Shown here one piece after another: positions 5,005 through 54,876 of a stretch of 64,000 nucleotides of DNA. A program made the position numbers and the translations under genes. The DNA comes from a virus. The stretch is taken from IMG/VR virus record IMGVR_UViG_3300045988_175607, positions 47,956 to 111,955 of that record, one strand, 5' to 3'. The stretch's first letter is position 1. The number at the start of each line of letters is the position of its first letter. A model generated the notes under the pieces. It was not told the origin of the DNA. It worked only from the letters and a program-made list of their open reading frames with translations, and searched no databases.

Positions 5005-5601
5005 TTATAAATCAATCCAACTTAAACTCTCAAGCGCAGCTATACGAGCATAGATTTCTTCTTCTTTATCAGCTAAATAATTACTAGCTTCTAAATCTTT
5101 AATATCTAACCCATATAATACTTTACCTTTTGTTGGCCGAGTGCTTAAATTGTAAGTAAAATATCTTGGATTTTTTTCATCTAAAACCTTATTAAGTTTA
5201 TAAAATCTAAATGAAAAAGTAACATCGCCGGCATACTTAGTTGCTTCGCCTCCAATAGCCCAAGGAATAAGCATTTTTGGCGAGTCAGGGTCATTATAAG
5301 TGGTTACGTCATAATATGGAACGGCATATACCCGCGATTCCCCACCAGCATTTATATATTGTATTACACAAGTTGTAGTAGCTAAATCGATATTATCAAA
5401 AAATCTATCTACAATAAAATATAAACATTCTGCCCTATGATCTTTCTCCACACTTAAAAAATCTGGCACTTCAACAATTCTTTTGTTTAAGTCGATTTTA
5501 TAAATGGGTTCACTACTAGGGAGTAAAACTGCCAAGGTGGGAGGATTTACATCATAAATCTATGATAAATATTTTTCATATTCCGCGGCAGTTGTTATCA
5601 T
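5005..5601 (-). CDS. Hypothetical structural protein (about 198 codons, 1 in-frame TAG)
   Basis: Track ORF 5005..5535 extended upstream through TAG at 5560 to ATG 5601, preceded by SD AAGAGGT; TAA at 5005. Confidence 0.5.
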
Positions 5602-5619
5602 TGTTAGTTACCTCTTTAA

Positions 5620-7434
5620 TTAGATTTGTGCAACTTTGAAGAGTAAGCTATAAGTAGGTTCAGATTGGCTGCCATTAAGATTATTAATAATTTTAACATA
5701 ATAATAACCCGACACTTTAGCATTATAACGAATCGCGAGATCGGTAGTTTGAACAGCTTCAGGCAATAAAGCTTCATCATTCTCATGGGGATGTTGTTTG
5801 CCAGTTTCTGCATAATCATTTTTATAATCACATTTATACCACTGGTAAGTATATCCATCAGTTACAACACCTGAACTTAACGTTACTTCTAAGGTAGCTG
5901 AACCATTTTCCATTTCAATTTCGGCCATACCGCCCTCAGAAGCAGGCAAAGGCTTCACGATAACGGGTTTTGCAGCTGGCTTGGTAACACGGCAAACCTC
6001 AGACTGTGTAGTTAATTTACTATTATTTAAATGATTAGTAACAATTACACTATAGCTACCTTCTTCATTTGCAGTATATTCATTTTTAATAGCGTTTTCA
6101 ATAAGATTTTCTTTAGAATACCATTGATAACTAAGTTCACCACCGTCAGGACTTTCTGCAAGACAAATTAATGATATAGGAGTCATGTCTGCATCAAATA
6201 ATGAACTTGTGGGGAAGCTCTTTATTACTGGTTTGCTTGCGGCAGGAACTACGCATTTAGTGGTATCTATCGTATCAGAGCTAATCTGTACACGATTAGT
6301 AACAGTGGCAAAATAAGTACCAGTCTCAGAAATGGTACAAGCATAGAACCTTTCATAATAAGTATTTTCAGGAATCGGATCACCATCAGTAACTTCTGCG
6401 ATTTGATAACCTGAAATATTCTCATTATTTTCAGCTTTAATATAATAAGCTTTACCCTAAGCAAAAGTACCATCATTACTCAGTACATATTCATCAGGCA
6501 GAACCGTAAGCTTGCTATCAGCACTGGGTACAATATGACCATTTTGCATATGAGTCCAAGAGATGGAGATAACTCCCGCGTCTTGGCTTTCAGCTTGTAT
6601 CCTGAGTGTTTGAGATTGATGATCTCTTTCGCCTTCAAGATTGATTGTTTCAGGCAAATCTTCAAATAATACAGGTTTTTCCGCGGTTTGACCACCAACA
6701 GGATTAGTATCAACAAAGCGGCTAAGGATTAAATCATTACGATCAATAATCTCTATTGCGCTATCATCTTCTATATCTAAGTCAAGAGCAGGATTAATTA
6801 CTGCACTTGCAGTCAAAGTACTAAAACTATAAGTAATTTTAGGCTTTTCTTCATTGGTTTTACTAATAAAACGCACAGAAAATTTAATTGTGCCTGCGCG
6901 ATCAGTAATTTCAGAAGAAATAGGCCAACCAAAAATAATCTTACCAGGCTTGCTTATAATATCGCGCACCCAAGGAATAGAAACGTTCTTTTCAGTAATA
7001 CCTTTAGCATCAGGCGCAGTTTCCCACTATATATAAATTTCTTTAGTATTTAAGTCAGTAGCATCAAAATAGCGATCAATTTCAAAATAAAGTATTTCGG
7101 CAATTTCATCGCCTTTTACTGATATACCATTCTTTTTAAAACTGGGAGGTACAGTAATAGTTCTTGTATTTGCATCAATCAAAAATACTTCTTCGTCTAC
7201 TGGTAAAATAGTATATTTAAATTGTCTATTTTTTGAAGGGTCATAAGCTGGCGAATTATTAGAAGTATCATCATGGTCATATTTAGCTAATTTAGTAATA
7301 TAACCAAAATAATCTTCTAAAGTAGTGATTTCCGCACCATCTTGCATTTCATTATGTTTTTTCAAGATTTTATTGGCCTCTTCAAATAACTTACGATATT
7401 TAACAGTATTTTCACTATTTACATAAGTAATCAT
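5620..7434 (-). CDS. Structural protein with Ig-like (Big_2-type) repeats (about 604 codons, 3 in-frame TAG)
   Basis: Track ORFs 7027..7434, 6457..6969 and 5620..6186 share one frame and are joined only by TAG; SD + ATG at 7434 with TAA just upstream; TAA at 5620; repeated YQWY-containing segments separated by KPAAKPVI linkers. Confidence 0.5.
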
Positions 7435-7463
7435 TAGCTTTTAACTTCCTTTCTATTAAAATT

Positions 7464-7493
7464 GTGAGTTAGGAAACGAATTTCCTAACTCAC
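7464..7493 (-). terminator. Perfect 13-bp hairpin GTGAGTTAGGAAA-CGAA-TTTCCTAACTCAC
   Basis: Lies between the gene ending at 7510 and the start at 7434; T-rich flank. Confidence 0.45.
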
Positions 7494-7509: not shown

Positions 7510-7719
7510 TTATTGTTCTTTATCTACTTCTACCCATAAGTTTAAATCTGCTTCTGGTACAGTCACCATTTCAACAAATCTTTTATGGTCTTTAGTAAGA
7601 ACTTTTCCTTCATCAGCAACTAAGGAATAATAGCGAACCGAATAAGCACCTTCTATATGAATGGGGCTATCAATTATTCCATTAGTGCCTAAATATCTAT
7701 AAATTGTAGATTTGTTCAT
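7510..7719 (-). CDS. Hypothetical small protein (69 aa), TAG-free
   Basis: SD AAGGAGA + ATG 7719; TAA at 7510. Confidence 0.55.
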   Translation of the reverse strand: MNKSTIYRYLGTNGIIDSPIHIEGAYSVRYYSLVADEGKVLTKDHKRFVEMVTVPEADLNLWVEVDKEQ

Positions 7720-7730
7720 ATTTATTCTCC

Positions 7731-10700
7731 TTATATTACTTTAAAGTTATATGTAACTCCAACACTTGCAGTGGTAAGACCAGTAAGATTCGGCAAATAA
7801 TCATCTGATTCTGGCGCACTATACTTATTAATATGCTCCTAATCAGAATACATATTTACTGTTGTAATTGTGCGGTTAGGAGGATTCTAGAAAAGCACTC
7901 TATAGTTAGTAGAGCCAGAGCGCATACTAGTAATATAACATCCTTTTTCAGAATCGCCAAAATTAAATGTTGATATCTTGGTTTGGAAAGCAAATGCCGA
8001 TTGACCTATAAATTCAAAATGTCCAGTAATAGTAAATGAATCATTATCAATGGGTGAACCACTAAGTGCGTAGTTATCAAAGCGACACACCTTATCTGGA
8101 TTAATATCAATACGACTTAATCTTAATATTGGTATATCAACGGCATTATTTTTACGTATTGAAGCCATACAATACGCACCAAAGCGCTCTATAGTGCCAG
8201 GAACTTCAATATACTATAACTAGCCCATACCCTCAAGACAACGAGGCATAAAATCAATGACGTTTGTTCCAGCAGGGTCTTTATACCAGAAAATATGTGT
8301 GATATTGTTATTGTTTCTAAAACCATTAACAAGACTTGAATTAGTATCACCATAAATACCAATAATGGGCTAATTGTTATGACGAGTTGGCAAAGTTATT
8401 TTACCAGATAATGAATATTCAGATTTAATGCTGATGTAATAACCATTTTGTTCACGATATGTTCCAGAAGTGAAATCAAAAAATTTCTCATCAAAAGGCG
8501 CATCATAGACATTTGCTATTTCATAAACCGCATAGAATTTATAATCTTTAATAGATCTCATAGCCTCTAAATCAACCTTGCGGCCGCCCTTACTGGTTGA
8601 ATAGCCGACGTGTTTATAAGTGCTTTCAAGGGGTAGAGTTGATTCGTCTTTATGAGGAATAATTGTGGGAGGATAAAGCTTTTCATTATAAGTGACTTCT
8701 ATCTCATCGATTAATGAATCATCATCATTATAAAAAGACATTTTATACTTATGCTTAATATAAATAGCATAGAAAGTATAATCTATCACACCCTATGTGC
8801 AAGACCATTCTTCCCATTGTTCATTAGTGATAATATTATTACCTGCTGCATCAGTTGCCCAACCGAGGAAATCATAATTGGGCTTTGGCTTTGGTGTATA
8901 AGTGGTATAAGGATTAGAGAACCGCACAATTGTACCACTTTCAAAATCATCAGCCGCAATTTTCTATATGCCAATAATATTTTTCTTACCATCTTCATCA
9001 ATCTATACAAATATACCAGAATAACCTTGCTTTACATTTGTAAAGAAGAAATTAAGATTGGGATAATAATCATTGCTCTATAAAGTATTGCGAATATATC
9101 CTTCATCAATTACGTCATTATTCTCAATATAAATATAACCAGTAATTTCAGGCATTGAAGTCGCAGTACCTTTGAATATATTGCTATACTTTTCGATGTA
9201 ATCTTTTAACATATCTACATTGGCAATAGTCTCATATTTATTGGTAACTTTCTTAAATAATTTTCCATCAATAAGTAAGTTATTCCATTCAGAAGCATCC
9301 CAAGTCCAAGTTTCTAATCCATAATGGCCATTATCTTTGTAGTATTCCTCAGAAACATTATAAGTATAACCCTCAGTTAATTTTTCATAAGGCATCCAAT
9401 TAACTCCACGCAATGAAATTTGCAACTAACCTTGATTAGGAAGAAGCTTGATACGAGTTAAAGACTTTAATAATTTATAACTATCATAACCAAAATAATC
9501 ACCATTAATGCTTAATACATTTAAACCAGTTTCAGTCGCAGTATCTAAATTATTAGTTAAATCTTCAATATATAATCCCGTTGGAGGAGTCCAAGTAGAG
9601 AAATTCTCTTCTGTTGGAGGCTCATAAGAAACAATCAAATCTTTTAACTAAGAAGCTTCAACCAAATTAAGATTCGTTAAAGTCTTAGGAATATGTAAAG
9701 TATTAAGAGCAACACCTTCTGCAAATACAATATTCTAAATATTAGAGCGTACTGCACGGAAAGATTGTAATTTCTCACTGCTGGAAAAATCTAATGTTTG
9801 TACATTTTCAATAAATACACCAGTAAGATTTACCTCTTTTAACATTGGTTTACCTTTTGCACTGCTCTTAGAAGCATCAAAACTGGGTGGATTCGTTTTT
9901 AAGAAATAGCCCGGATACTCTGAACCAAGTAAAAGTCTCTATAAACGAGAAGCTCCTAACGCTCTAAACTCTCGCCAATATAAAGTGCTCATATCACCAA
10001 CATCTTGTAAGAAGCTTGCGCCATAAATATAGAATAACTGTTCACCATAATTGGCACCACTACGACGTCCTATAGGCATGTTACCCGGTAATTGCATATA
10101 AACAGCTTTGTCACCTTTATATAATTGCGGTTCCATTGAGCTATTATCGCCACCAATAGTAACATATTGCCGTTGATAAGGAATAATCTTTACTGCTAAA
10201 TCAGCATCCAAATAATTAGTTTTTATTGGGTTGCCATCGGCATCTTTTTTCTCTGTGCCATTTTCTATAACATAATATGGCGAATATTCAAAACCGGCTG
10301 GTAATGTCGTAGTATTATTATCGATCCATTTATCTGAAGTTTGATTTATATCGTTAGCAATAATACGACCTTGAATTGAGGCACCCGCACGTGCATATTC
10401 GCCCCAGCCCTAAAATGAATCATAAAAATTAATACGATTCATTAAGAATTGCTGACGAGATAAACTACGATCACCTTGTAATGCATAGAAATAAGTACCA
10501 TCACCATCAATCGCAATATCACCATCTTGATTCTAATAACCATCTCCATCGGGATTGGTAATAGAAATATATTTCCAATATTCATCCAAATTCAATGCCA
10601 TTAAAGGACGAATACCTCTCATAGCAATAGAATTACATTCAACAGGGTCGGCTAAGTACCATTTTTCAATATGATCAACATCTCGCTATAAAGCAGAACG

Positions 10701-13700
10701 ATTATCATTATCTCCAGTAGATGAGCCAAGCAAAGGGGTTGTAGTTTTTTTAGTATTAATATTAACAATGCCGTTACCGTCTCCACGCATCTAGAAATAC
10801 TTAGCCTTTAAAGCATCTTTATAGCAAGTATAAAGGTTTGCCCATAATACGCTATCATTAGTAGAGAAGCAACCATCTTCTTGCGCATTCACGTAATATT
10901 CAAAAGAAGGAATACCAGTATTATTAATACCTAATTGAGTATCCATATCATAGAAAATAGGATACCAAATATAATCTCCGCCTTCTTTTTGCGGACCCCA
11001 AGACGCCATCATACAATTCTTTCCACGGCTATCATAGCAAAGGAAAATTTCTGTTATTAAGAAATATACTAAACAATATTCTAAATCAAAATGTTCAGGT
11101 AATTCTTTCTTAAATTTAGCCAAACGATATTCTTGAGTATCAAAATAATAATTAACGCCATTAATTGTTACCGCAGAATCAAGCACTTCAATATTATCAG
11201 TTGCATAATCTGCAGGAGTTAATTGTATAATATTAAATACTTCAGCATAAGTTTCAACTGTACCAGTCTAATAAGTACCAACTTTATCAAGGTCTTGTAC
11301 ATAAACATAGCCAGTAATCTTAGCATAGGCGCGGAAAACATCACTATCTGTAAAGGTATAAATAGGATTACCATTATTATCTGTACTATCAGTAGTTCCC
11401 CATTCAGCACTCTTTAAAATATCATCAGTCAAACCAGCTTGAGTTAAATTGTTTTTAACATCATCATAACTCATTGTTGTTTCTACTGGATTAAATAAAA
11501 TGGTTTCTTGTATTGTTGGTATTTTTGCTACGGAGTATTTTTTAGTATGAACAAATGTTGCATTTTCTCCATACTTTTTTATTGCATATTTATTAATTAA
11601 GTCATCTTCTTTACCGACATAATCAACACAAGTACTCCATACCCACTTACAAGCGCGTTCCCAATTTTTCATCTTCTTAAATAAAGAAGCATTTCGATTT
11701 TCAGGAGTTGTATATTCTTCTGGACTATAATCAGCAGCCAAATCTTCTGCTGTTACACCACCACCGGTTATATCATAAATATAATCCAATAAATCGGAAT
11801 CAGTATGATATCGATATTCATAGCTATCTGTAACTATTGGCCCGCATCCTTTAGAATTTGCGCGCTCATTACCATTAAATGCAAGTCCTTCAGTATTCAT
11901 CCCCGCACGACGCATTTCTTCTTGAGTCATGCTAAAGCTAAATTCTTTGCGTTTTAATGGATCTCTAAATGAACAGAATGTGCGGCCATTGTCTGAAAAT
12001 TCCCAACATTCAGCCATTTTGCGAACAGCTTTATTACCTAAGAACTTTTGACTTATTTTTTTACCAGGCTTAAAGCCATATACTTCATCAGAACCTTTAT
12101 CCAAAAGCATATTGAAACGGCCTAAGAATGTATAAGTATCTCCATTTTTGCGGAAACCCAATACAGGGAAACCTTGGACGCTAGTACGATAATCTTTTAT
12201 GTTTGGCCAATCATAAGATTTATATGTTGTTACTGCAATGTAATAATTGCTAACATTATCAGCATTTACAATTGTTTGATCAGCTAATTTTTTATATTTA
12301 CCAGCGTCATTTAATTCATAATAAGTAGTATTTTCATCATAAGAAGTTGCGGTTTCGTAATTTTCTTTAGATTCAGTAAAAGCACCAATACTATTATAAT
12401 CATTAATAGGATGTTTAGTATAAGCATTAGCAACAAAGTTTGCCATACCCATATTATAAGTGCCAGAAGATTCCATATAATCAATTTTTACAGTGAATTT
12501 GGTAGTACCTACTGTATAATTATCATAATAGAATGCATCAAGATGGCATTTATCTTCTTTATTTTTATAAGCACTTGCAAAAGGCCCAGCATTCATATAC
12601 ATATTAATATTACCATCTGAACCTTTAGTTTTTATCTTATAATTGCGGCGAGGATAAAATTCTGAAGAAGTGCCTTGAACTTGAATCGTTACACCAGTGT
12701 TATTTAAATCTTCATAAGCCGTTGATGTAAAGCTTGGGCAATGATGTTTATAATATTCTTCAATGGCTGCAATTTCACCTTGCTCAGCCAAAATATTAGC
12801 TATTTCTTTATCTTCTTTAATCTTAGTTAATAATTCACCATTTTCATAAGCTCTATCTAAGCCAGTATTAACAAAAGTAACGGTAGCGCCATTAACTTTA
12901 ACCGCTTTTTTATAAGGCATATTTTTTAATGAAGTATTAGTAACATCAAAAATTAAATAAGGCATTAAATAATCGTCAGGATGGCTTTGATTATAAAGAA
13001 TCATATCTTCATAACGCAATCTAGGCTCATTACCAATACCAAGAGAAGCAATACTGTTTTGGTCATAAATTAAAACATCTTTAAAATCAACAGCATAATT
13101 CTTCAAAATGTTTAATAAATCTAAACTTTCAGAATAAATACGCATCTTATATAAATCAATATCACAATTACTTGAATTAAATTCAATGGCTGAGCTTGTA
13201 ATATTAACTGCACTACTTACTGTAATCTTGTTAACGCCAGTTAAAACACCATTAATATAAATTAAAATTAAATTAGAATCTGGTGAAAATACAATACTTA
13301 AATTTACTAATTGATTTTCTACATAAGACACATTAACCGTATCAGTACCATCACTAAAGAAAGCGTCCTATGGGCCTAAGCATAATCCAGTAGTGCCTGT
13401 AATATATTTGCAGAAAGCATTTGCGGTTGATATCTATTTATAAACCTAACTAAAAATTAAATCGTCATATTCTTTTCCCAATAGTTCTAAAGCCTTATCA
13501 TGCAAAAAAGCATCATAGTTATCGTACTTGTCTTGCGCGATAAAAGCATCATAAGCCACTTGGTCATTTTGATAACGAGTAATTTCTTTAATTAACTTAT
13601 TATAATTACTAATATTTTTAACTTTAAACTAAAATTCAAATGTACATTTCTTAATGCCACTTACGCTAGAATTTAAGGTCATTGGGCCAATAGGGATAGA

Positions 13701-15278
13701 AAATTTCGCGCCATTACTTATACGCAAACAGGTATCATTGTTTTCATCTAAAAGCCATCCATTATTATACCAATTAAAGTTTTCAAATGTTGCTTTATAA
13801 TCACCTTGTTGCCATTTTTCACGGTTCGCCGCAGACTCACTATTAGAACGTCCAGCAGCGTCAAATGAAAGCATTAAATTTTCAGTGATAATATTCATAT
13901 CACGATTGGGGTCAGTTTTTACATTAAATGCAATTTCGCGGCGTACTTCACGTTCGCCTTCACCGCAAGATATGTAATAAAGATTTTCTTCATTAGTAGT
14001 GATATCGGTAATTTCAAAAATCTTATATTCTGATGCCGCAGTGAAATTTATAACCTATTGTTTAGATTCAAGTATTCTTGCATCTTTATAAAAATTAACA
14101 ATAGTGTTAGTTGGAGCTTTTGGATCATAGGCTAAGAAAGGGATTTGAATTTTATCATAGTTATAATACTCATTTTTATAAGCACCTATCCAAATAATCG
14201 GTAAATTACTTGAACCACTATTATAAGCAAATTCAAATTCAATAGGTTCTGGGCCAGCACCCTGTTTGTTATTTTCGTAAGAATATAATTCAAAACGTGC
14301 AGTATGAGTGCCATGTTCTAAAGCCGCAGTATTTATTATATAAGATTTTTCACCATTATTATTATAATCTAATATCTATTCGCTTACTAATTCATTATCT
14401 ACATAAAATAATAACTATTTAGTAATTGCGCCAGATACGTTACAATACATAATTGGCTTAACAGTAGAACTATATAAAGTTAAAGGTGAAAACTTTGAAC
14501 TGCGGCTAAGGGTTAAATTAACAGTAGTAACTTGTATATTACGCTTTACAGAAATACCACTATTAACGCCGGAAGCAGTCATCCACAAAGAACTTGTAGT
14601 ATTTTCTTTTAAGCGTTTACCAAATTCAAACTAAGTCCTTTCACCATTATTAACCTCAAAAGTACCGCGCATATAAGGAGTGCCTTCATCTTTAGTGCCT
14701 TCATATAAAGCCCAATTAACGGTTAATATATCATCTTCATAATCACCATTTGCATCTTGTTTTGCGGTTGCGGTAACATAAGTAGATACTTCTGTACCAT
14801 TAACAATTGTAGAGTGCGTTAAACCTTCAACTTTAAAGGTCATATTGCGGCCTCCACTGGGGTTATCGCCGCTTCCACCACCGCCACCACTTATAGACAA
14901 TCGTGCGCAATATATCTAATCATTGGGTTCATCAATAGTTAAAATCTAATAAAAAGCGCCATCATTTTTATTTAATATTAAATCGCCTTCATGACAATTT
15001 TCATAATTTTCTATTTTACTTAGCACTAAGATATAGCCAGTTTCTAAATCTGGATCTTCTACCGGTTTTTCATCAGCACCATAAAATAATGACACACCAT
15101 TATTACCTAATAGTATACGTTTCCCATCAGCATCCATAAAGATTTGACCACTGTCTTTTACCATATAAATATAACCTTCATTATATTTTTCAGCTTCTAA
15201 TCTATCTTTAGTCGTGCGAACGGGTCTAAATGCAGTTGCCATTATATTTTTTAACTCCTTTCTATCATTTCGTAACAT
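7731..15278 (-). CDS. Giant tail-associated protein (about 2515 codons, about 40 in-frame TAG); central region with possible CotH-like signature
   Basis: Eleven track ORFs (7887, 8370, 9078, 9426, 9939, 10791, 11268, 13629, 14631, 14946 ...) all share frame (coordinate mod 3 = 0); every junction translated by hand contains only TAG; TAA at 7731-7733; ATG 15278 follows a terminator. Motif ...GGDYIWYPIFYDMDTQLG... resembles the CotH W-x-x-IPWD-x-D core. Gly-rich linker GGGGGSGDNPSGG. Confidence 0.45.
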
Positions 15279-15318
15279 AATAAAAAAAGGGAAAGGAACA
15301 AAAAGCCCCTTTCCCTTT
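15279..15318 (-). terminator. Rho-independent terminator (AAAGGGAAAGG/CCTTTCCCTTT) after the 666-aa fibre gene
   Basis: 11-bp perfect inverted repeat with an 11-nt loop; A-run on plus gives the minus T-tract. Confidence 0.6.
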
Positions 15319-15381
15319 TTATTATTCCTCTAAGGAAATTAAAAATTATATCTATTTATTTATTGAATTTCGTCCAATTAA

Positions 15382-17382
15382 TTAAAACGTACCCCAAACC
15401 AGATCAAATGTTACGGTAGCAACACCTTCAGCAGCAGTTGTAGTCTTAATAGAAATATTCTGATTACCAGTTGCCGCAACATAATTGACTTGAGCAGTCT
15501 TTGCGTTAGTGGCATCTTTAGTTTTTACAGAATGAACTACGCCTTGGCCATTTTCAGAAGCTGCAACAGTGAAAGTATCAATATCATTATGAGTATCTTT
15601 CAGAGTGTATTCCTTAGCGGTTACGCTAGTAACATGACCATTCTTATCATAAGCTACTTCATGAGCAGTAACAACAACGGCCTCATCAGTCTTCTGACTT
15701 ACCTTGGAAGCAGTAGGTGCGGCAACAGCAGCGCCAGGAGCAGCATGGCTGACCTTTATGTTCTGATATTTGCCATCAGCTTCAGTATTATTAACGGCAA
15801 CAGCAATATTGTCACCAGCTTCTAAGGTAAGCTGACCAACAACATTAGCAGCCATACCATCAGGAGCAAGCTTAATACCAACTTTGCCTTCATCTTCTAC
15901 ACGAGAGAAGCTATAAGTAGTATTTTCTTCATCGCCAGAAGGTACAACATACCATTTTAATCCGCTAGTAATAACGCCACCGACTTCATCGCCAGTAGCA
16001 ACGATTAAGTCGCCAGTCTTTACATTGGCGGCCGCGGCACTGCCTTCAACACTACCCGCAGGAATGGTGAAGTCACCAGTGGCTTTATAAGTCCAGCCAA
16101 TTTCTTGAGCGCCAGTAGGAACAGCAGTAGCGACTCCCTTGAATACCATGGCGTCCATGCTCTGCTTAGCAGCAGTAATCTTATCGTCGATAACCTTTGT
16201 AGAAATAGTGGCTACACCATTTACAAAGGAAACAGACTCGCCGCCTTCAAGCTTAACTTTAGGATCAAATGTATTGGTTACACCAACATCACTGGAAGTA
16301 TCTTTAACAGTTACCTTAAAACCAGTGGCCTGACTATCTACAGCAACGCTATCAAGCTTTGTATCAGCAGCAGAAACGGTGATGGCAGTACCATCTTGAG
16401 CCACTGTTACATTGTCACCACCAGCAATACTAAGTTCAGAGCTAGCACTATTAGCAAGGTCAGACTTTAAAGTAATCTTAGCAGTATTTTCAGTAGCTGC
16501 GGTTTCACCATTTAAAGAGAAATGGCTACCCTTAATCTTAACAGTTTTAGCAGCAGTATCAGTGCTAATGTTAATATCATTACCATCAGCAGCAATCTTA
16601 AAGCTATCCTTTACAGGATCAGTCTGAAGGCTATCTTTAACCGCGCTTTCAATAGTAGCAGTTTGACCCTCTTGAGAAACTGTAAAAGTAGTGGACTCAA
16701 CAGAACCAACTTCAGTAGTAGCATTAACAGTAATATCACCATTAGTACCACGCACTAAACTAATTGCATTACCAGCTTTTAAATTAACAGAACCAATCTT
16801 ACCCTTACGAGTGGTATCTGCAGCGTTATCACGATTTAAATCAATCGCTACACCACCAGTAATAGCACTAGAACCGATTGAATAAGTATCACCAGTTAAT
16901 TTAATACCATCAGTGCCATTAGCGGTCAGAACAAGATCTGCACCAACAAACTTCAGAGCAGCAGACTTATTATTAGTAGCATCAAGATCTTTACCATCAC
17001 GAACAAAAGCAAGGGTTGTAGTTGCAGTAGCCGCATTATCAGCAACAGCAACAGCAGTACTTACAGAAGAAACCTGAGTATCAGTATCAGGATTAATCTG
17101 CACCCATTGCTGACCATTATAAACACAAAGAATGTTTTCAGCAGTAGCATAATAGAAATGACCAATCTCATTAGAGAGATCGGCGCCCGAAGGCAGATTG
17201 GCTATAGCCGCAACAGTTGTTACGCCTTCATTAAGAGCAACCAGCTCAGTTGCAGATTTACCAAAATATAAACGATTAGTATCATTAGTTAAATAGAAAG
17301 AGCCCTCTTTAATACCAGTTTTACCGGCCATTAAGGTATTTAAACCACTTTGAGAACCCCTCAAAAATCCAACATTAGCCAT
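15382..17382 (-). CDS. Tail fibre protein (666 aa), TAG-free, Ala/Thr/Val/Gly-rich
   Basis: Complete standard ORF; SD AAAGGAGAT + ATG 17382; TAA 15382. N-terminus FLRGSQSGLNTLMAGKTGIKEGSFYLTNDTNRLYFG matches the conserved phage tail-fibre/HylP-type N-terminal motif (RG...GE.g.etDT..lkiGdG); visibly higher GC than its neighbours. Confidence 0.7.
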   Translation of the reverse strand: MANVGFLRGSQSGLNTLMAGKTGIKEGSFYLTNDTNRLYFGKSATELVALNEGVTTVAAIANLPSGADLSNEIGHFYYATAENILCVYNGQQWVQINPDTDTQVSSVSTAVAVADNAATATTTLAFVRDGKDLDATNNKSAALKFVGADLVLTANGTDGIKLTGDTYSIGSSAITGGVAIDLNRDNAADTTRKGKIGSVNLKAGNAISLVRGTNGDITVNATTEVGSVESTTFTVSQEGQTATIESAVKDSLQTDPVKDSFKIAADGNDINISTDTAAKTVKIKGSHFSLNGETAATENTAKITLKSDLANSASSELSIAGGDNVTVAQDGTAITVSAADTKLDSVAVDSQATGFKVTVKDTSSDVGVTNTFDPKVKLEGGESVSFVNGVATISTKVIDDKITAAKQSMDAMVFKGVATAVPTGAQEIGWTYKATGDFTIPAGSVEGSAAAANVKTGDLIVATGDEVGGVITSGLKWYVVPSGDEENTTYSFSRVEDEGKVGIKLAPDGMAANVVGQLTLEAGDNIAVAVNNTEADGKYQNIKVSHAAPGAAVAAPTASKVSQKTDEAVVVTAHEVAYDKNGHVTSVTAKEYTLKDTHNDIDTFTVAASENGQGVVHSVKTKDATNAKTAQVNYVAATGNQNISIKTTTAAEGVATVTFDLVWGTF

Positions 17383-17408
17383 TGATTAAATATCTCCTTT
17401 TAGTTAGA

Positions 17409-18137
17409 TTATTCACCAGCAGGAATATCAGCCCACTGTAAAGCAGTTTCTATAGTAGTAATACGAGTTTCGTGATCTTCTACAGAAACTTTTAAATTAG
17501 ATACTACAGTTTTTAAGCCAGGAACAGTAACTTGCTCTTCGCCTTCACCAGTAGTAGTGTCATTAATAATGTCTTCAAGAGCTTTTACGCGAGTGTCTAA
17601 TTCTAACGTAGGATGCTCTTGAATTTTATCGACCGTATCTTGTAAATTGCCGACAGTAGTATTCATGGTGGTTAAGCGCTCTTCAAGAGCATCTAACATA
17701 CCATCAATTTCACCAACATCAACAGTTACCCATGTACCATCGCCACGCAAGAACTTAGTCTGATCGCCAATCGCGGGAGCAGGAACATAACCAGCTTTAC
17801 CAGCCGCATCAGGCTTAGCACCAACCATTGTTTCGATTTTAACAAGGTCAGATATAGGTTTATTTATCCATTTTTCGCTTGTTGAATCATAAACCAGAAC
17901 ATCATTAGTGCCAAGGGTTTCAGAAAGATTAATATTACCTAATTCACCAAGAGAAATTTCGCTGGGGACTACTCCACCAGAGCTGGTAGAACCAGTAATT
18001 TCAATATCACCCAAGAACAAACGACCAGTTTGAGAATCAGCCGCCGCCGTAGTGAAATATAAGGTATCCTTATCTTTTACTGCCAACTTGACATAATTAT
18101 CGTATAGACCGCGCAAGAATTTTACATACTGAGTCAA
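17409..18137 (-). CDS. Tail fibre/neck fibre protein (242 aa), TAG-free, coiled-coil C-terminus
   Basis: SD AAAGGAGTG + TTG 18137; TAA 17409; N-terminus KFLRGLYDNYVKLAVKDKDTLYFTTAAADSQTGRLFLG shares the fibre N-terminal motif with the next gene. Confidence 0.65.
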   Translation of the reverse strand: MTQYVKFLRGLYDNYVKLAVKDKDTLYFTTAAADSQTGRLFLGDIEITGSTSSGGVVPSEISLGELGNINLSETLGTNDVLVYDSTSEKWINKPISDLVKIETMVGAKPDAAGKAGYVPAPAIGDQTKFLRGDGTWVTVDVGEIDGMLDALEERLTTMNTTVGNLQDTVDKIQEHPTLELDTRVKALEDIINDTTTGEGEEQVTVPGLKTVVSNLKVSVEDHETRITTIETALQWADIPAGE

Positions 18138-18202
18138 TGAAATTCACTCCTTTTCTTTTTAAATTCTTCACCTAATAGTCAAATTTACTGTTTATTAATT
18201 AA

Positions 18203-18243: not shown

Positions 18244-21200
18244 TTAAGCTTTGTTTTCTAAAGCGGCAATCCTTTGTTCTAAACTATTTATTTTATTCCA
18301 CAAACGTTTAATATAATTGTTTAAAGTAGCTTCGCCAGTAGGCTCAATAATACTATCAGTAGTTTCATTGGCGTAGCCTTTAACTACACTTGAACCAATA
18401 TCAGCGCTTATACCTTTAGTATACTTATGCTTGCCAATAATATGACCAGCTTCATCATATTCTATATCATATAATACAGGTTCTTCTGTATTGGGCTTAT
18501 CACTTGTATCAACTACAGAAATCTTATGTGCAACCTATAATTGATCATTAACTGTTCGTGGTAATGTCCAATCGCTTTGATACTCTTGTATACGACTTAA
18601 CCACATTGTTTTTTCTGGGTCAGCTAAAGCATTTGCTTTAGTTTTTAATTCTGCCGCATTAGTTAACTCTAAAGTACCTTCAGCAAATGTTGCACCGAAG
18701 CCTAATAATTCATTATAATAGTGCGGTTCGCGCTTGCCGCCATCAGGAACAAACACACCTCTTAATTGAATCCACTTATTAACTGAAGTTATTTCTAAAG
18801 GTTTCTATGTTGAGGTAGTCTTAAGTAAACCGCCTGAAACCATACTGCCACGCACCGGCACTTCCTCAGCAATTGGCGAGCTATATATCGCGCTATTCTC
18901 TGGAATCGCAGTAAATATATCGCGTGGATGACTGGTCTCATAAGGATTATTATCTCCGCGTGCAGTCACACTATTTTCGAATTCAGCTATCCAAGATAAA
19001 TATAAATTATATTCAGTCTCAGTAAGATTGCCATTATTTTTCTCTTCAAGCCAAGCCGCAAGTAAAGCGTCTTTATTTTCTATTACTTTTGGATTATCAA
19101 GATTAAATATAGCACCTTGATAAGAAAGTTCAAGCATCCTACTAAAATAAGGCTAATAATTTAAATTATTAATTACTATGTCTTTAAAATGAGTAGGCAA
19201 TGGCGCAATCTTATTTTGTTTACCAACTACATGTCCAGTTTCATCAATAAGATAATCACGCAATAAAATAGTACCATTATATTTATTATCAGTATAAGCC
19301 ATGTTATAAAGGTCATAAACATTAGGACTATTTTCTAATGAAGGTTTAATATCTTCAAGTTTGTGATAATTGTGATGAATGCTTAAAATATTATTATTTT
19401 TATCATTATTAATATTAACAGTAATCCATTGTTTATTAATCATAGCTGGATCGCTATAATCATGTTTATAAATATCTTGGTCAATAATATCATCACTGTC
19501 ATTTTCAAAAGTATAAGTAGTTTCAAAAAAGGGAATATTTTCATTACACCATTCTGCAGAAGGCTCGTTTCCAGCACCAAATGCCGATGTTAAATCAATT
19601 AACATCATTCCATCTATATAAAAATCTTTAATGCTACAAGCAATAGTAAGAGAAGTTGATACAACATTCTCTTCCTATAATGCACTCGGTTCATAAATAT
19701 ATGTTTGAGACTACCAATCATCTATATCAGTTTTTTTACCCGTCATTTCTATAAGCTTAAACTAAACTATTTGAACATTATTAGAATAATTAAGACGAAA
19801 ACTTACTATGCTACCTGTTCCATATGAATTAGTATAACAAACAAAACAATATTTATGATTTAAAAAAACCTAAATATCTTTAGAAGGTGTTAAATATATA
19901 ACATTATCTTCACTATCTTTTACTCTTGTGAGTGAAGTTTCTCCAAAATATTTTTTTGAAGAATCATATTTAGCATTATTGCTGAATGTCCATGCCTTAT
20001 TTTCAAATGATGGATCGAAAATAAGATTAGTTAAAGTAACATTTTTTGTTACAACAGGCTCTTTAGTAAAATTAATGCTATTACTCTAATCAGTGCTAAT
20101 TTTAGCACTAATTATTTTACCAAACTGATCAACCGTCAACAGTGATTTAGGAGTAAGTGTATCGAATGTATTTAAAATATCATTCATCAAATTAATGCAA
20201 CCCTAAACTGTTTTATTATCACGAGATGTTTCATTATCAATCTCTAATAACGCATTTAGTTTAAGAATTAATCCATGAATAGTATTCAGTCCATCAGCAA
20301 ATCCAACCAATTCACTAAATTCATAACCCATCTATTGGCCTATTAATGATAAACCATCAACAACTACTTTATAATCAGTATCCCATTTTTGTCCAATAGT
20401 GTAGTCATAATCATATTCTTTAGAACCATCAATTGCTTCAATATAATAATTGACATCATCAATAAATTCATAATAATACTTTTCTTTAGTGTCTGCGCGG
20501 TTTTCACCAACTAAAAGCCCCTTAACCGCAACAATACTAGTCCAAGCTTGACCTAAAGGATAATTAGTTTTTAAAGCTGTCTATTCATCAGCATTTAAAT
20601 CAGTTAAATCATAACCAACAATCTGATAATTAATACCTTCCTCTAATACATATTCATCTCTATCAAGCGCGGCAATGGGGGAAGTTGCAAGAGTTAAACC
20701 TTCAATATAAGTTTTATTGGCAGTATCCCAGATTTGACCAACCTGATATTGCTTTTTAAAGTTTTCAAATTCCTCTGTGGGCATACCAGCACTATTTTCA
20801 ACTTGAGTAATTTGATAAATAATACCATCGCGGAATACCCATTCGCGCTCGTAAATTGAACCAATTAATGTAAGTTCAGTTTGGCCCTCTTCATAATAAC
20901 CCAAAACAATACCATCAATAAATTCTCGACCATAAGGCCAAACTTCATGATTTTCATAAATTGAACCATACTTTTCTTGAAGCTCTTGAATTTTTTCTTC
21001 AGTAAGGCTTGTGCCACTACCAATTTCTTTAGCTATATAATAATCAACACCATCTTGCATATTATAATATAACTTCTAATCGGTTGCAGCAACATATTGA
21101 GATAATGTGACACCAGGAACTACTTTATCTCCTTCAGTCCAGATGTCTCCAATAACGTATTTTTCTAAAAGCTCATCAATATCTTCTAAAGCAGAAATTT

Positions 21201-23157
21201 GATATTGAGTCCCAACAGCCATATCATAACGAGACACTTGAACAACTTCAGCGACGCTAGATGCCAACTAAATACCCTACCGCACTTTTGTATCACTAAT
21301 AGACCAAGCAGTACCAACATTTAACCCACTTGTGCCAGCATCAACAATATAATATTTTTTATCAGGCTTAAAAATGTAAGATAAACTAGTCTAATCACTA
21401 ATTGTTACATCAATAATATCAGGCGCAAGAACAATACCATCTATTACATCAGTTAATTCAGTATTCCACTTTTGTCCTACTTTAAAATGCTGATTAATAT
21501 AAGTGGCCTAATCTTTGTCAAATTGCGCATTTGAACCATCTTCTAAATAAGCAATATAATAATTACGTCCAGGTTTAAATACATATTTACCATCTACAGA
21601 AGCAACTGTTGTAAGTAAACCTTCTTTATATCTTTTAACTAAGTCAGTATTACGAATACGATAATATTTTTGATTCTGATAATAAATTTTATCTAAATCA
21701 ATATTATTAAAATCTTGTAAATCAATATGATTATCGTCATTAGTAACAATAATCATACCCATTAAATCATGTACTGAATTAATACAACCCGCAAGAGTGT
21801 TAATTTTATCAGTATCATAGCTATATCCATTACCTTCTGGATTAATACTTACAAGACGTAAACCATTTTTATTATCCCAATCAACATTAAGATTACGATT
21901 CAAAGAACCATTCTATTCTTCTGAACCATAAACTAAATCCCAAACATGAGCTAAAGTATTACCTAAAGAAGGCAACATAACGCTAATTTCTTGAGTATCT
22001 TCACTCACAGCTAAACGATTAGTACCATCATGTTGGTTATATAAATGACCACTATATCCAGTAGGCTCAATAGAAATTTTATCTGTTATATTTTCATCAG
22101 CATAAGAAATATGTTCAGGGTCAAAGCCCGCTTTATTGTAATAAATCGCGGCGGGAATCTTACTTTCTGCGGTTTGCCACTATTTGGTTTCCGCATTAAA
22201 ATACTGCTTTTGGCTTGTATTATTTTCAGTATCCATCTTAATTTGAGACCAAGAAGTTTCTTCATCAGAAGGATAATCTTTTACATCATTAGTCAAAATA
22301 GTAGAATTAGTAAATAATTCACTTTTATTACCATTCTCATCAAGTACTGGGCCAGTAAATTGTTCAGCACCTTTAATCCTTAATCCCCATGAAGGCTACC
22401 AATGTAATTGATAAAATTTATTGGTGCTGTCAGTATCAAAGTGCGGCGCCATAGGTACAATACTTGGTGCATCCGCGGAAATACCAAGTGCAGGCATCGT
22501 GGAATTAAGTTCCGCAATCATTATATATTGTTCTTTATTATCTTTATAAACCTTTTGCCAAACGGTAGAATCCCAACCGCGCCCTTTACCATAAATAGAA
22601 GTATCTAAAGCATAATTACGCACATAAGCAGAATTTGCACTGGTTAAAATAGTAAACACAGATTGACCATTTACCAATTTAGCTTGATAATAAAGAGTCG
22701 TAGAACCGTTTAATGTTCCAATATCAATAGGTTCGTGCGAATCAGTTGATGTATTATAATTAAAACGCTCAGTAATTTTACCATTTTTATCAGTAACAGT
22801 TGCTGGAACGCGCACTACATCGCCTTGCCGCACTTGACAATAATTTAAACTTACTGTTGAACTGGGTACAACCTCTAATTCATATGCCGCAGGAAACTCG
22901 ACTGCGCCATCAAGCACTTCTTGAATACTTGCGCCCTCTTTTTGTTTAAAACTTGCATATAGCTTACCATCGGGTGCTAAATAACAAGATTTAAAACTAT
23001 CATCGCTACCTTCAGAATCATATTCCACTAAAACCAAACGATTTACATAAATACCATCAGTCTTAATATTATGATCCATTTCATAGCGGCTAGAATAAAT
23101 TTTATCAAAATTGAACTGGGCGCGGTCTAAATTTACCACTTTTCCATAAAAACTCAT
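18244..23157 (-). CDS. Giant tail fibre / receptor-binding protein (about 1637 codons) with internal CBM-like module
   Basis: Track ORFs 22396, 21508, 21076, 20581, 19153, 18805 and 18535 all have mod 3 = 1 and are joined by TAG; ATG 23157 is preceded by TAA; TAA 18244; internal ...FDPSFENKAWTF... and IDLTSAFGAGNEPSAEWCNENIPFFE. Two junction stretches were not translated by hand. Confidence 0.45.
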
Positions 23158-23547: not shown

Positions 23548-26500
23548 TTAATAAATTCGATCAACTACTTTAGTTGCTTTTATATTCATTAATCCATTAT
23601 GAGTTAATGGTATTGTTAAGGTTTGAATATTATACAAACCATTAATTTTACTTGTTTCATCGTATATTGAAATCTAAGTGTTAGGTTCTAATGTATATAT
23701 AGGTATTGCATTTACAGTTACAGACTCAACACAATAGGAATAATTATATACCATATTGTCTATAACTGAATGCGCATCTTTTCCTTGTGCGCTAATACTA
23801 AACATATTTTCATATTCAGCATTTAAATATATATAACTATAACCATCTCTTATTTCTCCTTGCGCTTTTAACTCATCATACTAATTTTTATTAGTTAAAA
23901 AAATCACCGTAGGAGTTTCTCTATAATAGATGGCCGTTACCTTATCATCATTAATTGCTTTAGGCCTATCTCCAACTATATTAATAGAATACTTCTCTAA
24001 ATCATCACCGTCTAAGAAATCTAACCAATAATTTAAAACTTCAGGAGCATTAACCACATTTTTATTCCAATAATATAATGATTTATCAACGCCGTCAATA
24101 GGCTTATAATATTGGCAAGTTTTAGTATAATATGAACGATTTTTCTTAGGCTCATAAATTACAATATCTTCAATTCCATCTTGAACAAACACATTTTTTA
24201 AAGCTTGCTACGCCGCATAATCTTCTACGGTTTCAATTACTTTATAAACACTATATTCAGTCGGCACAATTTCATATCCTGATAAAGTTGCAGTAGATTC
24301 TTTAAGATAATATCCCTTAGTAATTTTACAGAAAATGATATCTTCTCTGCCCCATACCTCATCATCTTTTGGATTAGTATGGTTTACTTCTGGATAACGA
24401 TAATAGGGAGATATCACTTTATCTTTTCTGAAAGAATATAAGCCATTTGCACCTTTACTCATAACCGCAAGATATTCCTTAAGAACAGCATCGTATTCAT
24501 AAATATCAGTATATTCAGAAAAAGTTTGATGATATCCATCAATATAATGGTCAGTTTTCTCATAATAGATTTTCTTAGAATCATATATACTATCTTCAGT
24601 CAATTTTAAAAACTTATCATCTATATTTACATCTTGATAAATGTAACAATTATGAGTTTTCTTTGCATTGACTAAACTATTATCACTAGTAACTAAAGCG
24701 ATATTGGGATTATCATTTTCTGGTATAAAAAAGCCATAAGTATTTTGAAAATGCACTTCTTGCCCATTTATATATTCTGTATATTCGGTATTATAAGAAC
24801 CATTTAGCGCATAATAATATAAAGGTTCAAGCTCCTCTTCTTCTTCTGCATCTGCAAAAATATAAATATTTTCGTCAAATGGAATATTTTGATTACACCA
24901 ATCTAAATTAGGCTCTTGTCCCGCGCCATATTTACGAGTTAAATCTATCATAACAAAAGGTGCAACTAAGCCATTAGCACCGTCAGTATTTTCAGATAAA
25001 GTGGTGATTATAAATTTAAGCGCATCATAATCTTTTAAAGTAAAAATATTCGCATATCGGAACTAATTTTCTGATTCTTTAAATTGCGGGAACCATCCTT
25101 TGCTATGATCTGAAATAACATTTGCATATAAACCCTATAAAATTCTAAATATTGTAGCAGAAGCATAGGAATGTACTGCAATATAATATTTATGAGCTGA
25201 AGAAATTTTTGCTTGTTTATTTATTTTATGAAAAGTATATTCACTCTCAAAATAAGGAATATTTGCATCACACCATTCTCTTGTAGGCTCTTTACCCTCA
25301 CCAAAAGCTTCAGTTAAATCAATTAATATTATATCATCTATACAAATAATACTTGATGTATTTACACCTATTCCAAAATTAAATTTAGAAATATGGCTTG
25401 TAGATCCAGTAATTAACTTTGAATGTCGATACCATTTTTTTTCCAAATGCCTTCCATACCAAGTATTATTAATATTATAATTAATATTTGCCGCTCCATA
25501 GTTATAATATATACCATTTATAAGTTGAGTTATTTTTACACTTGACGCAAAATTTGGACTGTGACAAGCGATATAAAAAATATGATTTTCAATATTTGGT
25601 GTAATTATAACGTTGTTTGATGGTGGAAAGAAAAAATCCTCATAAGTTTGCTCTTTTTTAGTTGTTAATGAAACATTTCCACTCAAACTTAAATCTGTAT
25701 TATATATAATGCTAGAATCTTCTAAAATAAAGCTCTTGTTTTCAAAAGAGGGGTCAGGAGCTAAATTAGTTAAAATTATATCATTAACTTCTTCTTCCTT
25801 CTCATCAATATTTATATAATCTAAATTAGTAAAATACATATTAGTACGCTATACGTAAACATTATCATATTGCAGGCATAATGCAAACATATTGCTATTA
25901 GTAATTTCAACTAATTTATTCGGCTCATCAGGATATAAATATTTTATTTTTTCAATATAGCCCAATTTATTGCCTTCAGACCAATCGCTATCATAATTAT
26001 CATCAAAAAATCCAAAAGCTTCAGAAACCTCAATACTAAAGGGCCGACACCAATAAGTCTAAACAAAATTATTCCAGATTTCTTTTGCAGATTTTCTAAA
26101 TGTATTATATATTTCTAACTAATGAGAACGTTGTTCTAAATTAAATACAGCTTCTTGCATAGATAATATTTTTTTCTTAACCTTATTATCTAACTCAGTC
26201 TATACTTCATAAGTTGAATATTTTTCATCTGCGCAATTAATTCGACGAGATTCATATCCCACTTCAGGCTCTAATGAAGTTGCTCTATCAATAATTTCAG
26301 GAGTTATTTTTACCGCATTTGGCCACATTGGTTTATAAGGCAGCAAATGAACAAAACCAGTAGATTGACAATAATGTTTTTTGTCTTTATAACAATTACC
26401 AACCTATTGATAATCGCGCACATAAGAAAAATATAATTCAGAAAAATTACCATCTTCTGTTTTTATATAATACTTAGTACCAAAATCAACTGGATGAGTC

Positions 26501-45200: not shown

Positions 45201-45867
45201 CACTCAAACCCTATTGATAGTAAATCAATGAAGCGTTTGTATAATTAGTGGTTGTAGTACTCAAAGCTTTTGCAGCTCTATTAGCTTCAACCGCAAAATC
45301 CTTCATCTATTCAGCACTATATCCAGTAACAATACGAATATCATTCAAAGATCTATTTAAATTTTGAGCATAATAATAAGCCTTTTGCACACCGCCCATT
45401 AAACCATGTACAATACTGGATGATAATTGCCATCTCGCAGTATTTGATAACGACACACCAAGTTCTTTTATTTTACTATTTACGCGAAAAATTGGCGCTT
45501 CAGCGTTAACAATAGCTCTTGTCATACCATTGAAAGCTTCCATGCCCTTCGGACCTAAAAGCGCCAATTCATTACCATAATCTTTTAAGGTTTTTCCACT
45601 TTGTTTAAGTGAAGCATTGAATCTATTTAAATCCAACTTGCCAGTCTTAGGATTCATCGCAGATTCTAACTAAGCTTGTAATTCAGCGGCAGAAGCACGA
45701 GCCTTCATTAAGGCATTATCCAGATCTGAGAGTCCGCTGCCATTATTCCAATTTAAATTTTTGCCAACGGCTAAACTATTTAAAGCTTGCTATAATGATT
45801 GTATTTCCTTCTTTGCCGCATTAGCATCTGCGGTAAAAGATAAGGTTACATTTAACTGTTTTGGCAT
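36280..45867 (-). CDS. Tail tape measure protein (about 3195 codons, dozens of in-frame TAG)
   Basis: Ten track ORFs from 45307 down to 36280 all have mod 3 = 1; every fragment end checked (45307, 44605, 42079, 40540, 38746) is TAG; long coiled-coil E/K/Q/L-rich text; C-terminal YGYATGGYTGNWGTSDGKVALLHEKELVLNK is typical of TMP ends; SD AAAGGAGC + ATG 45867; TAA 36280. Confidence 0.7.
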
Positions 45868-45901
45868 ATTAATAAATTGCTCCTTTCTCTCTATATACGA
45901 A

Positions 45902-45938
45902 AAAAGCCTTATGGTATATTAAATACCATAAGGCTTTT
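45902..45938 (-). terminator. Perfect 16-bp hairpin between the chaperone gene and the TMP start
   Basis: AAAAGCCTTATGGTAT-ATTAA-ATACCATAAGGCTTTT, followed on the minus strand by T-rich sequence and then the TMP SD. Confidence 0.55.
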
Positions 45939-46512: not shown

Positions 46513-46543
46513 TATATATTTCTCCTTTTACTCTATATATAAA

Positions 46544-47797: not shown

Positions 47798-47965
47798 TTT
47801 ATTCTTGAGAATCAAGCTCAAAATCTAATTCTTCAAAAACCTTCTTAGGTTTTTTCTTTGTTATTTTTATCGGCTTTTCTTCTTCAATATTAATCTTTTC
47901 TACTTCTGGTTCTACCACCTTAGTAGCATTTCCCACACTTGCTTTTTTACGCGAGTGTATAATCA

Positions 47966-48964: not shown

Positions 48965-48987
48965 AGTGTTTTGTTCCTCCTTAATAT

Positions 48988-52882: not shown

Positions 52883-52906
52883 TTTATTATCTCCTTTTTC
52901 TCATAG

Positions 52907-54073: not shown

Positions 54074-54090
54074 TATATTTTTCTCCTTTC

Positions 54091-54855: not shown

Positions 54856-54876
54856 TGTTTATCCTCCTTAAAACTA

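Follow-up and report, generated by a model that had tools for sequence, protein, structure and literature searches.

A kinase-like domain is found in a whole family of giant, tail-fibre-like phage proteins, and one member is encoded by a gene on the minus strand (15242..7731) of a 64,000-nucleotide stretch of the IMG/VR virus record IMGVR_UViG_3300045988_175607 (positions 47,956 to 111,955 of that record). The stretch comes from an uncultivated phage and is referred to as a whole as the window. A first-pass annotation, made from the sequence alone, had read the region as a single gene of about 2500 codons with a possible CotH-like kinase-fold segment. We consider it probable, though far from certain, that the product is a giant tail fibre or adhesin, which is read through amber codons and carries a working CotH-like enzyme, and that it belongs to a gut siphovirus resembling phAss-1.

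One gene read through TAG codons

From the ATG at 15242 to the TAA at 7733-7731, the gene (7731..15242, minus strand) comprises 2,503 codons with 28 in-frame TAG codons, which are read as Gln, and without a single TAA or TGA. Counted from an upstream ATG at 15278, the frame has 2,515 codons, and the residue numbers used below follow this longer count, in which the ATG at 15242 encodes M13. Between 15332 and 7841 on the minus strand, TAG is the only type of stop codon in this frame, which extends upstream to 15338, and the first TAA or TGA encountered is the TAA at 7733-7731. The two alternative frames over the same stretch contain 102 (81+21) and 377 (195+182) TAA or TGA codons, and the absence of these codons here is therefore far beyond chance. 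Both the size of the single frame and the expectation that its fragments are separated by TAG only, with no TAA or TGA between them, had been put forward in the first-pass annotation and are borne out by the stop-codon census. Its count of 11 same-frame fragments has to be corrected, as 28 TAG codons divide the gene into 29 pieces and eleven is approximately the number of long open reading frames (ORFs) obtained with genetic code table 11. The central fragment of 687 amino acids (aa) that it singled out is present at 11268-13331, and the peptide that it quoted, SWGPQKEGGDYIWYPIFYDMDTQLGINNTG, is found at aa 1426-1455.

Homologous proteins that are not interrupted support the same conclusion. 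Uninterrupted relatives of 2,100-2,900 aa align with the target from end to end and are collinear with it across the TAG sites; one of them, P0197 (2,458 aa), aligns in one stretch to aa 17-2514 with 40.8% identity over 2,592 columns. Such relatives have aligned residues across all 28 TAG sites, and Gln is the commonest residue at these sites (428 of 3,107 cells, 13.8%), compared with a background of 2.8% and a level of 22.7% at the target's own CAA and CAG codons. At the TAG site at position 637, Gln is found in 114 of 123 relatives. The presumed Gln codons of the target are made up of 28 TAG, 47 CAA and 3 CAG codons, so that TAG accounts for 36% of them. The recoding also extends over the whole window, in which reading TAG as a sense codon yields 38 ORFs covering 64.8 kb, versus 33 kb under the standard code. 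The long TAG-read ORFs all lie on the minus strand, and this reading restores a terminase, a portal protein, a tape measure protein of 3,212 aa and several proteins of 1,100-1,640 aa.

If the TAG codons were real stops, the region would hold a series of small genes or be a decayed pseudogene. It does split into many ORFs under table 11, and a tRNA scan detected no tRNA, and hence no suppressor tRNA, in the 64-kb window. However, the census leaves 2,503 codons free of TAA and TGA where the alternative frames have 102 to 377, the uninterrupted relatives bridge every TAG site with an enrichment of Gln, and the terminase, portal and tape measure genes of the window are interrupted by TAG in the same manner. 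In addition, related phages carry tRNA-Sup(CTA) genes, of which two to three were described in relatives of phAss-1 (PMC10607447). We give the idea of real stops next to no chance and regard a pseudogene or many small genes as ruled out by the census and the full-length relatives; the target is one gene read through TAG.

A second recoding is found in a related phage. The 135.7-kb contig L001 (ENA ERZ28612952 scaffold_87) encodes an ortholog at 8285-16240 with 25 in-frame TGA codons and no TAG, which aligns to aa 6-2457 of the target; the flanking gene order is kept, and the neighbouring genes are likewise interrupted by TGA. Since 13 of 24 of these TGA sites correspond to Trp in the target, sister phages of its group can be taken, from the alignment, to use TGA for Trp in place of TAG for Gln. 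In the phAss-1 study, only TAG recoding was reported for the group (PMC10607447). The same gene is intact across phages with the standard code, with TAG recoding or with TGA recoding. In public databases, gene calling under the standard code has left the family in hundreds of fragments without meaning.

The phage itself can be placed as well. Relatives of phAss-1 are gut siphoviruses of approximately 135 kb with TAG read as Gln, tRNA-Sup(CTA) genes, a predicted host in the class Clostridia and tape measure proteins of 3,150-3,209 aa (PMC10607447). The phage studied here shares with phAss-1 and the proposed Phassvirus group (OQ749652) the reading of TAG as Gln in late genes, a tape measure protein of about this size (~3,150-3,210 aa in that group) and the gut origin (PMC10607447). 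Its major-capsid-like protein is 50.6% identical to that of phAss-1 and approximately 42% identical to those of large Enterococcus siphoviruses, and a TAG-recoded phage of the phAss-1 group, Siphoviridae sp. ctxMM9, encodes one relative of the target. The source is a phAss-1-like, amber-recoded, large gut siphovirus, and the target is a single late gene of it. On the other hand, the receptor-binding fibre of phAss-1 is a pectate-lyase-type protein of ~1,070 aa, a tblastn search of phAss-1 with the giant protein gave no match, and no nucleotide match to the target gene was obtained by megablast among GenBank phages.

With regard to the start codon, the public gene call on a 176,020-bp ENA contig (ERZ27250529 k119_226633) gives this very gene as 2,503 aa, database relatives start at the equivalent of M13, and the ATG at 15278 falls within the T-tail of a terminator-like hairpin with a 16-bp stem (15284..15320, minus strand), which lies between a TAG-free gene for a 666-aa protein and the giant gene. 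For these reasons we favour the ATG at 15242, and the ATG at 15278 is less likely to be the start. The hairpin is strong and would fit high expression of the 666-aa gene with attenuated read-through into the giant gene. A separate observation concerns seven minus-strand genes that are free of TAG and stand among TAG-laden late genes (15382-17385, 17409-18143, 45979-46527, 47966-49009, 52286-52900, 52964-54109 and 54091-54858). They include those for the capsid-like protein, a tail-tube-like protein and the Ala/Thr/Ser-rich protein of 666 aa, and we presume that the suppressed codon is avoided in the structural genes that are expressed most strongly.

The CotH-like domain and its putative active site

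When the target was compared with the Pfam CotH profile (PF08757), as had been proposed in the first-pass annotation, the segment aa 1376-1632 gave a match (E 2e-4, 21.3 bits) to profile positions 158-248 of 322, where the catalytic core lies, whereas the whole protein gave no match at E<=1. As the score of the segment is below the gathering score of 23.8 bits, we refer to the domain as CotH-like and as a divergent branch, and not as a curated member of the Pfam family. CotH is the sole Pfam family matched by 26 of the 49 relatives of the C-lobe segment (E<=0.01; best E 1e-6). Relatives P0128 and P0006 score 23.8 and 22.9 bits, respectively, and several relatives carry a precomputed PF08757 label.

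The fold was assessed on a relative. P0128 is compact and lacks the long insertions, and was chosen because P0001, the closest two-lobed relative, modelled poorly. An AlphaFold2 (AF2) model of P0128 aa 60-500, which is based on a 141-sequence alignment including the target's own fragments (P0128 has an E of 3e-51 against the family profile), reached a predicted local distance difference test score (pLDDT) of 73.9 and a predicted template modelling (TM) score of 0.81. The top Foldseek matches of this model were the Bacillus cereus CotH structures 5JDA and 5JD9 (E 5e-7, probability 1.0, TM 0.52-0.63). The next fold, that of PI3-kinase (PI3K; E 0.02), and also HipA, are likewise atypical kinases, and the gap to CotH exceeds four orders of magnitude in E-value. 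The target and P0128 share the conserved motifs of both lobes in one alignment. Taken together, the 21.3-bit profile match, the 26 relatives and the fold match support a predicted CotH-like kinase-fold domain in the target, in agreement with what had been suspected from the sequence.

Following these alignments, the domain consists of two predicted lobes separated by an insertion, all encoded, like the other features described here, on the minus strand. The N-lobe (aa 860-1165; 11784..12701) was delimited by column counts, aligns to the N-lobe of the modelled P0128 and is covered by the fold match. It is followed by a variable insertion of 210 aa (aa 1166-1375; 11154..11783), which contains the TAG at position 1337, corresponds to a region of low confidence in the first AF2 model (P0001), and places 261 aa between the EYRY and YDSRGKN motifs of the target compared with 146-198 aa in relatives. 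The C-lobe (aa 1376-1640; 10359..11153) contains the Pfam CotH match and is similar to Bacillus phage G gp353 and to Hankyphage-type proteins. In the modelled relative P0128, the domain has the same atypical kinase fold as Bacillus CotH (PF08757; 5JD9/5JDA), and the family shares with this enzyme the catalytic Asp, the Asn five residues later and the second Asp. The similarity is otherwise marginal (21.3 bits; 10-11% identity in the structural match), the target domain is about twice as long as Bacillus CotH through insertions, and it is embedded in a 2,500-aa phage protein of structural type, whereas Bacillus CotH is a free 42-kDa coat protein.

Two motifs in the C-lobe make up the putative active site. 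The putative catalytic loop, D1416-S-R-G-K-N1421 (11016..11033), would be the equivalent of the HRD...N loop of kinases, and all of 43 relatives have its residues D, S, R, K and N. The putative metal-binding motif, Y-D1444-M-D1446-T-Q-L-G (10929..10952), would be equivalent to DFG, with D1444 and D1446 found in 48 of 48 relatives. Nor do the motifs with D1416, N1421, D1444 and D1446 change in 20 full-length relatives with an overall identity of 23-47%. In the N-lobe, the motifs QGTSS..YPRRNYK.K, K931-x-D933-x-M-E936-SS, RT..G.P, D1060-K1061, C-W-E1093 and E1154-x-R-Y never vary, and the fixed polar residues include K931, D933, E936, D1060-K1061, E1093, E1154 and R1156. The CotH-like domain appears to keep every residue expected of an active phosphotransferase, namely Asp 1416, Asn 1421 and Asp 1444/1446. 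We take this to be an active-site pattern rather than a spacer because the Asp/Asn/Asp set and the polar residues are fixed at such low overall identity, and the invariance of the putative site across very divergent members argues for a real enzymatic activity. In B. subtilis CotH, the catalytic D228 and the metal-binding D251 are both required and a change of either inactivates the enzyme (PMC7821199). The spacing between the two Asp residues in P0128 is 23, the same as between D228 and D251, and in the target the hairpin between them is five residues longer. From motif and spacing, we infer that D1416 and D1444 are the likely equivalents of D228 and D251.

A widespread family and the proposed function

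The target belongs to a recognised and widespread phage family of giant proteins (>2,000 aa) with a LamG-type lectin, a CotH-like domain and leucine-rich repeats (LRR). At 2,503 aa, it has CotH motifs beside carbohydrate-binding modules, identified via its relatives, and LRR modules. A search with a C-lobe profile retrieved 1,831 clusters (50% identity) at E<=1e-3, of which 601 reach E<=1e-30; among the best 142 family representatives, 108 are at least 2,000 aa long and have the C-lobe at about the same position as the target. In BFVD, 13 viral proteins have a CotH fold. Giant phage proteins with CotH, LamG or LRR parts have been noted several times as targets of diversity-generating retroelements (DGRs) and were called unstudied (PMC5758913, PMC8008677, bioRxiv 10.1101/2020.04.01.020958, bioRxiv 10.1101/2024.11.15.621889). 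The claim that CotH-domain tail proteins are rare and functionally unexplored therefore holds in its second half, in which the literature agrees, but not in its first. Similarly, the target had been placed among the largest phage structural proteins, but it is outsized within the window by the 3,212-aa tape measure protein and is unexceptional within its family. It is real and well supported, but the family was already recognised, and the target is neither rare nor exceptional in size within it. In gut metagenomes, the family ranks with the largest groups of giant phage proteins, and the diversified protein of Hankyphage, a phage common worldwide, is one of its members.

This DGR variable protein of Hankyphage (Bacteroides phage p00, BK010646; 2,245 aa) is the best-known member of the family. 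It was said in 2018 to resemble no characterised protein (PMC6199706), and it has been treated as a tail fibre (PMC12135933). Related giant CotH-like DGR targets correspond to category f1 of Wu 2018, to PC_00012 of Roux and to domain group 3 (bioRxiv 10.1101/2024.11.15.621889). In a phmmer comparison, the Hankyphage protein and the target match with a full-sequence E of 1.4e-24 in six ordered segments from aa 125 to 1874. Both exceed 2,000 aa and have the same domain order of a beta-rich array, a LamG-like region, CotH N-lobe, CotH C-lobe and LRR, and the active-site motifs D-Q-R-A-K-N and Y-D-G-D-T-Q of Hankyphage match those of the target. The gene order in Hankyphage, with tape measure protein, hub, minor tail protein and DGR target, resembles the tail block of the target. 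Unlike the Hankyphage protein, with which it shares only patchy identity of approximately 24-35% and not the N-terminus, the target ends in Flg_new repeats and a BspA-type LRR domain instead of a C-type-lectin variable repeat. The phages differ as well, as a TAG-recoded siphovirus of ~176 kb compares with a Mu-like temperate phage of 43 kb.

A search for DGR template and variable repeats found no repeat pair at the 3' end of the target, and no reverse-transcriptase-like ORF was recognised by eye among the translations of the 64-kb window; the target shows the architecture without a DGR. As a BspA-type LRR tip is present in 19 of the 20 sampled full-length relatives, this suggests that the LRR is the common form and the C-type lectin with a DGR is one variant. 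P0128 (1,250 aa, from a JGI metagenome) has a CotH-like domain of only ~420 aa and a C-terminal DUF6273 domain (E 1e-10). Members of the family seem to exchange their distal domain, with LRR_5, C-type lectin and DUF6273 as the alternatives. Other catalogued phage proteins with a CotH fold are Bacillus phage G gp353, which is similar to the C-lobe of the target (tblastn E 4e-15), a "Spore coat protein H kinase fold" protein of Myoviridae sp. ctrCp2, and, in crAss-like phages, cr52_1 ("internalin-like") and cr124_1 ("spore coat protein-like"). At 700-1,300 aa, these proteins are about half the size of the target and are often fused to LRR or internalin-like parts.

Based on the location of the gene in the tail module, the collinearity with the Hankyphage protein and the LRR_5 matches of nearly all full-length relatives, we propose that the protein would serve in the virion as a tail fibre or adhesin. 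It would be anchored to the tail tip by its conserved N-terminal domain, and the immunoglobulin (Ig)-like and LamG modules, the Listeria-Bacteroides repeats and the BspA-type LRR would bind the host surface, with the LRR tip taking the role of the hypervariable C-type lectin in DGR-bearing relatives. The CotH-like domain would be a working enzyme and not a spacer. Its substrate could lie in the host envelope during adsorption or, alternatively, among the proteins of the virion or fibre within the infected cell, which provides ATP.

Besides the missing suppressor tRNA, several observations weigh against a fibre with a working enzyme. The fold was modelled on the proxy P0128, which is 23-36% identical to the target, and not on the target itself; the model of P0001 had a pLDDT of 47.8 and gave a meaningless Foldseek result. 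When PDB chains were searched by sequence and by profile with four different queries, CotH was never among the matches. The equivalence to D228 and D251 is deduced from motif and spacing, the location in the virion would follow from gene context and homology, and the N-terminal domain has no Pfam or NCBIfam match and resembles no known fibre anchor. The target's own Pfam matches (CotH, LRR_5 and Flg_new) all lie below the gathering scores. The same Pfam families are seen in the 20 full-length relatives (CotH, Laminin_G_3 and Flg_new each in two or three, LRR_5 in 19), and in this sequence comparison the family confirms the sub-threshold matches of the target. Finally, ATP is scarce outside cells, and a kinase on an extracellular fibre would need it.

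The scarcity of extracellular ATP also speaks for a fibre or adhesin in which the CotH-like domain only binds, as a catalytically dead pseudokinase scaffold or a ligand-binding module. Fungal CotH proteins act as invasins through binding, and the large lineage-specific insertions in the domain, the weak Pfam match and the failed PDB profile searches could be seen in the same light. We nevertheless think a dead domain rather unlikely, as the Asp/Asn/Asp set and many polar residues of both lobes are invariant among relatives with 23-47% overall identity. Inside a cell, ATP would be available, and the protein might not be a fibre at all but a kinase effector that manipulates host signalling in sporulation, dormancy or division. 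The predicted host class Clostridia includes spore formers with CotH kinases that pattern the spore coat, and an effector role was proposed by Roux et al. for CotH-like DGR targets (bioRxiv 10.1101/2020.04.01.020958). We give little credence to an effector, since the architecture with Ig-like array, LamG, Listeria-Bacteroides repeats and BspA LRR tip is that of a surface-binding protein, the gene lies inside a tail-fibre gene block and keeps this position in L001 and Hankyphage, homologs end in a DGR-diversified ligand-binding domain typical of receptor-binding proteins, and many relatives are found in phages of Bacteroides, which do not sporulate. A further role, which Benler et al. raised for the Hankyphage protein (PMC6199706), would be that of a decoration of the virion by which the phage attaches to mucus or to glycans of the animal host, and not that of the bacterial receptor-binding protein. 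Host glycoproteins might serve as ligands for the lectin, Ig-like and BspA-type LRR modules, and the next gene (5620-7440) encodes Hoc-like Ig domains. However, the phage has several further fibre-like giants, so that no role can be assigned from sequence, and tethering would leave the conserved enzyme-like domain unexplained; we see a very slim chance for it.

With a tail fibre or adhesin carrying a working enzyme as the preferred reading, one might speculate further that the virion displays an active phosphotransferase, which either phosphorylates a component of the host envelope (protein, teichoic acid or glycan) at adsorption or, in the way CotH does with the spore coat, patterns Ser/Thr-rich fibre proteins of the phage itself. 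We regard this as possible but tentative. If it were true, it would add a new class of tail-fibre enzymes beside depolymerases, esterases and lysins, and more than 1,800 sequence clusters among the proteins of gut phages would have kept such an enzyme, independent of DGRs.

Flanking domains and gene neighbourhood

Outside the CotH-like domain, the protein begins with a conserved domain (aa 13-129; 14892..15242), recognised in the alignment of the 20 full-length relatives by the consensus F.P.RG.E..I.......G..YFATD.GKIYLD, which we infer to be an attachment domain that would anchor the protein to the tail tip. An anchor motif shared by the N-termini of the target and neighbouring fibre-like ORFs had been seen by eye, but in a BLAST comparison the target was similar to none of its neighbours. 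A Gly-rich hinge, SGGGGGSGDNPSGG, follows (aa 130-143; 14850..14891), and its poly-G run is kept in the family consensus. The next region (aa 144-470; 13869..14849) is a beta-rich, presumably Ig-like array, which is collinear with Hankyphage aa 324-746; PHROG matches over aa 117-571 were to phrog_14959 (profile length 2,494; E 1e-57) and phrog_24896 (E 1e-30). The region aa ~475-730 (13089..13856) would be a LamG or concanavalin-A-like lectin. It has no Pfam match in the target itself, but Laminin_G_3 is matched by the relative P0099 (E 2e-3) and by 3 of the 20 full-length relatives (best 7.5e-5), and the motifs NFNWYNNGW...LRISNGA and ...IYINGVL...CDIDLYKMRIYSESL are conserved.

Downstream of the C-lobe, a central LRR-like solenoid region (aa ~1760-1960; 9399..10001) was recognised by eye from its repeat pattern. 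It is conserved in the family and aligns to P0128 aa 500-712 and Hankyphage aa 1528-1574, and LRR_8 is matched by 3 of the 20 relatives. Two Listeria-Bacteroides (Flg_new) repeats follow at aa ~2125-2265 (8484..8906), with a sub-threshold Pfam match (E 1.4e-3). An NCBIfam search of the target matched TIGR02543 here (E 0.02) but was not informative, and Flg_new is matched by 2 of the 20 full-length relatives (best 2.8e-8). The C-terminal BspA-type LRR domain (aa ~2280-2515; 7734..8441) would be the receptor-binding tip. It matches Pfam LRR_5 with E 3.7e-5 and 24.1 bits against a cut-off of 27.7 bits. A Pfam search with the whole protein likewise gave a weak match to LRR_5 and to no other family; the best LRR_5 match among the 19 relatives is 3.7e-89.

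The target sits in a tail module among further large, TAG-rich ORFs. On the minus strand, the order is the tape measure gene (36280-45918; 53 in-frame TAG), four large ORFs, the 666-aa gene and the target, and the 3,212 aa of the tape measure protein imply a very long tail. An Rfam scan gave no match in the 64-kb window. The gap of ~290 nucleotides between the stop codon of the target and the next gene contains a perfect 13-bp palindromic hairpin (7464-7493) and a 69-aa ORF (7510-7719). The two genes directly downstream, 5620-7440 and 5005-5607, are paralogous over ~150 aa (34% identity) and occur in the same order in L001; the match of the 5620-7440 product to Hoc-like Ig domains has a PHROG E of 2e-8. 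A module of ~180 aa (...SFENKSF...LIDLTE(S/A)FGAG(N/K)EP..EWC..NIPFF...) is found at 1775-2260, 19500-20040 and 24850-25780 in three fibre-like giants, encoded by the ORFs 1-2337, 18244-23157 and 23548-28401 (the last containing it twice). The copies have a protein identity of up to 60%, which points to a binding or assembly domain that they have in common, or to recombination among the fibre genes.

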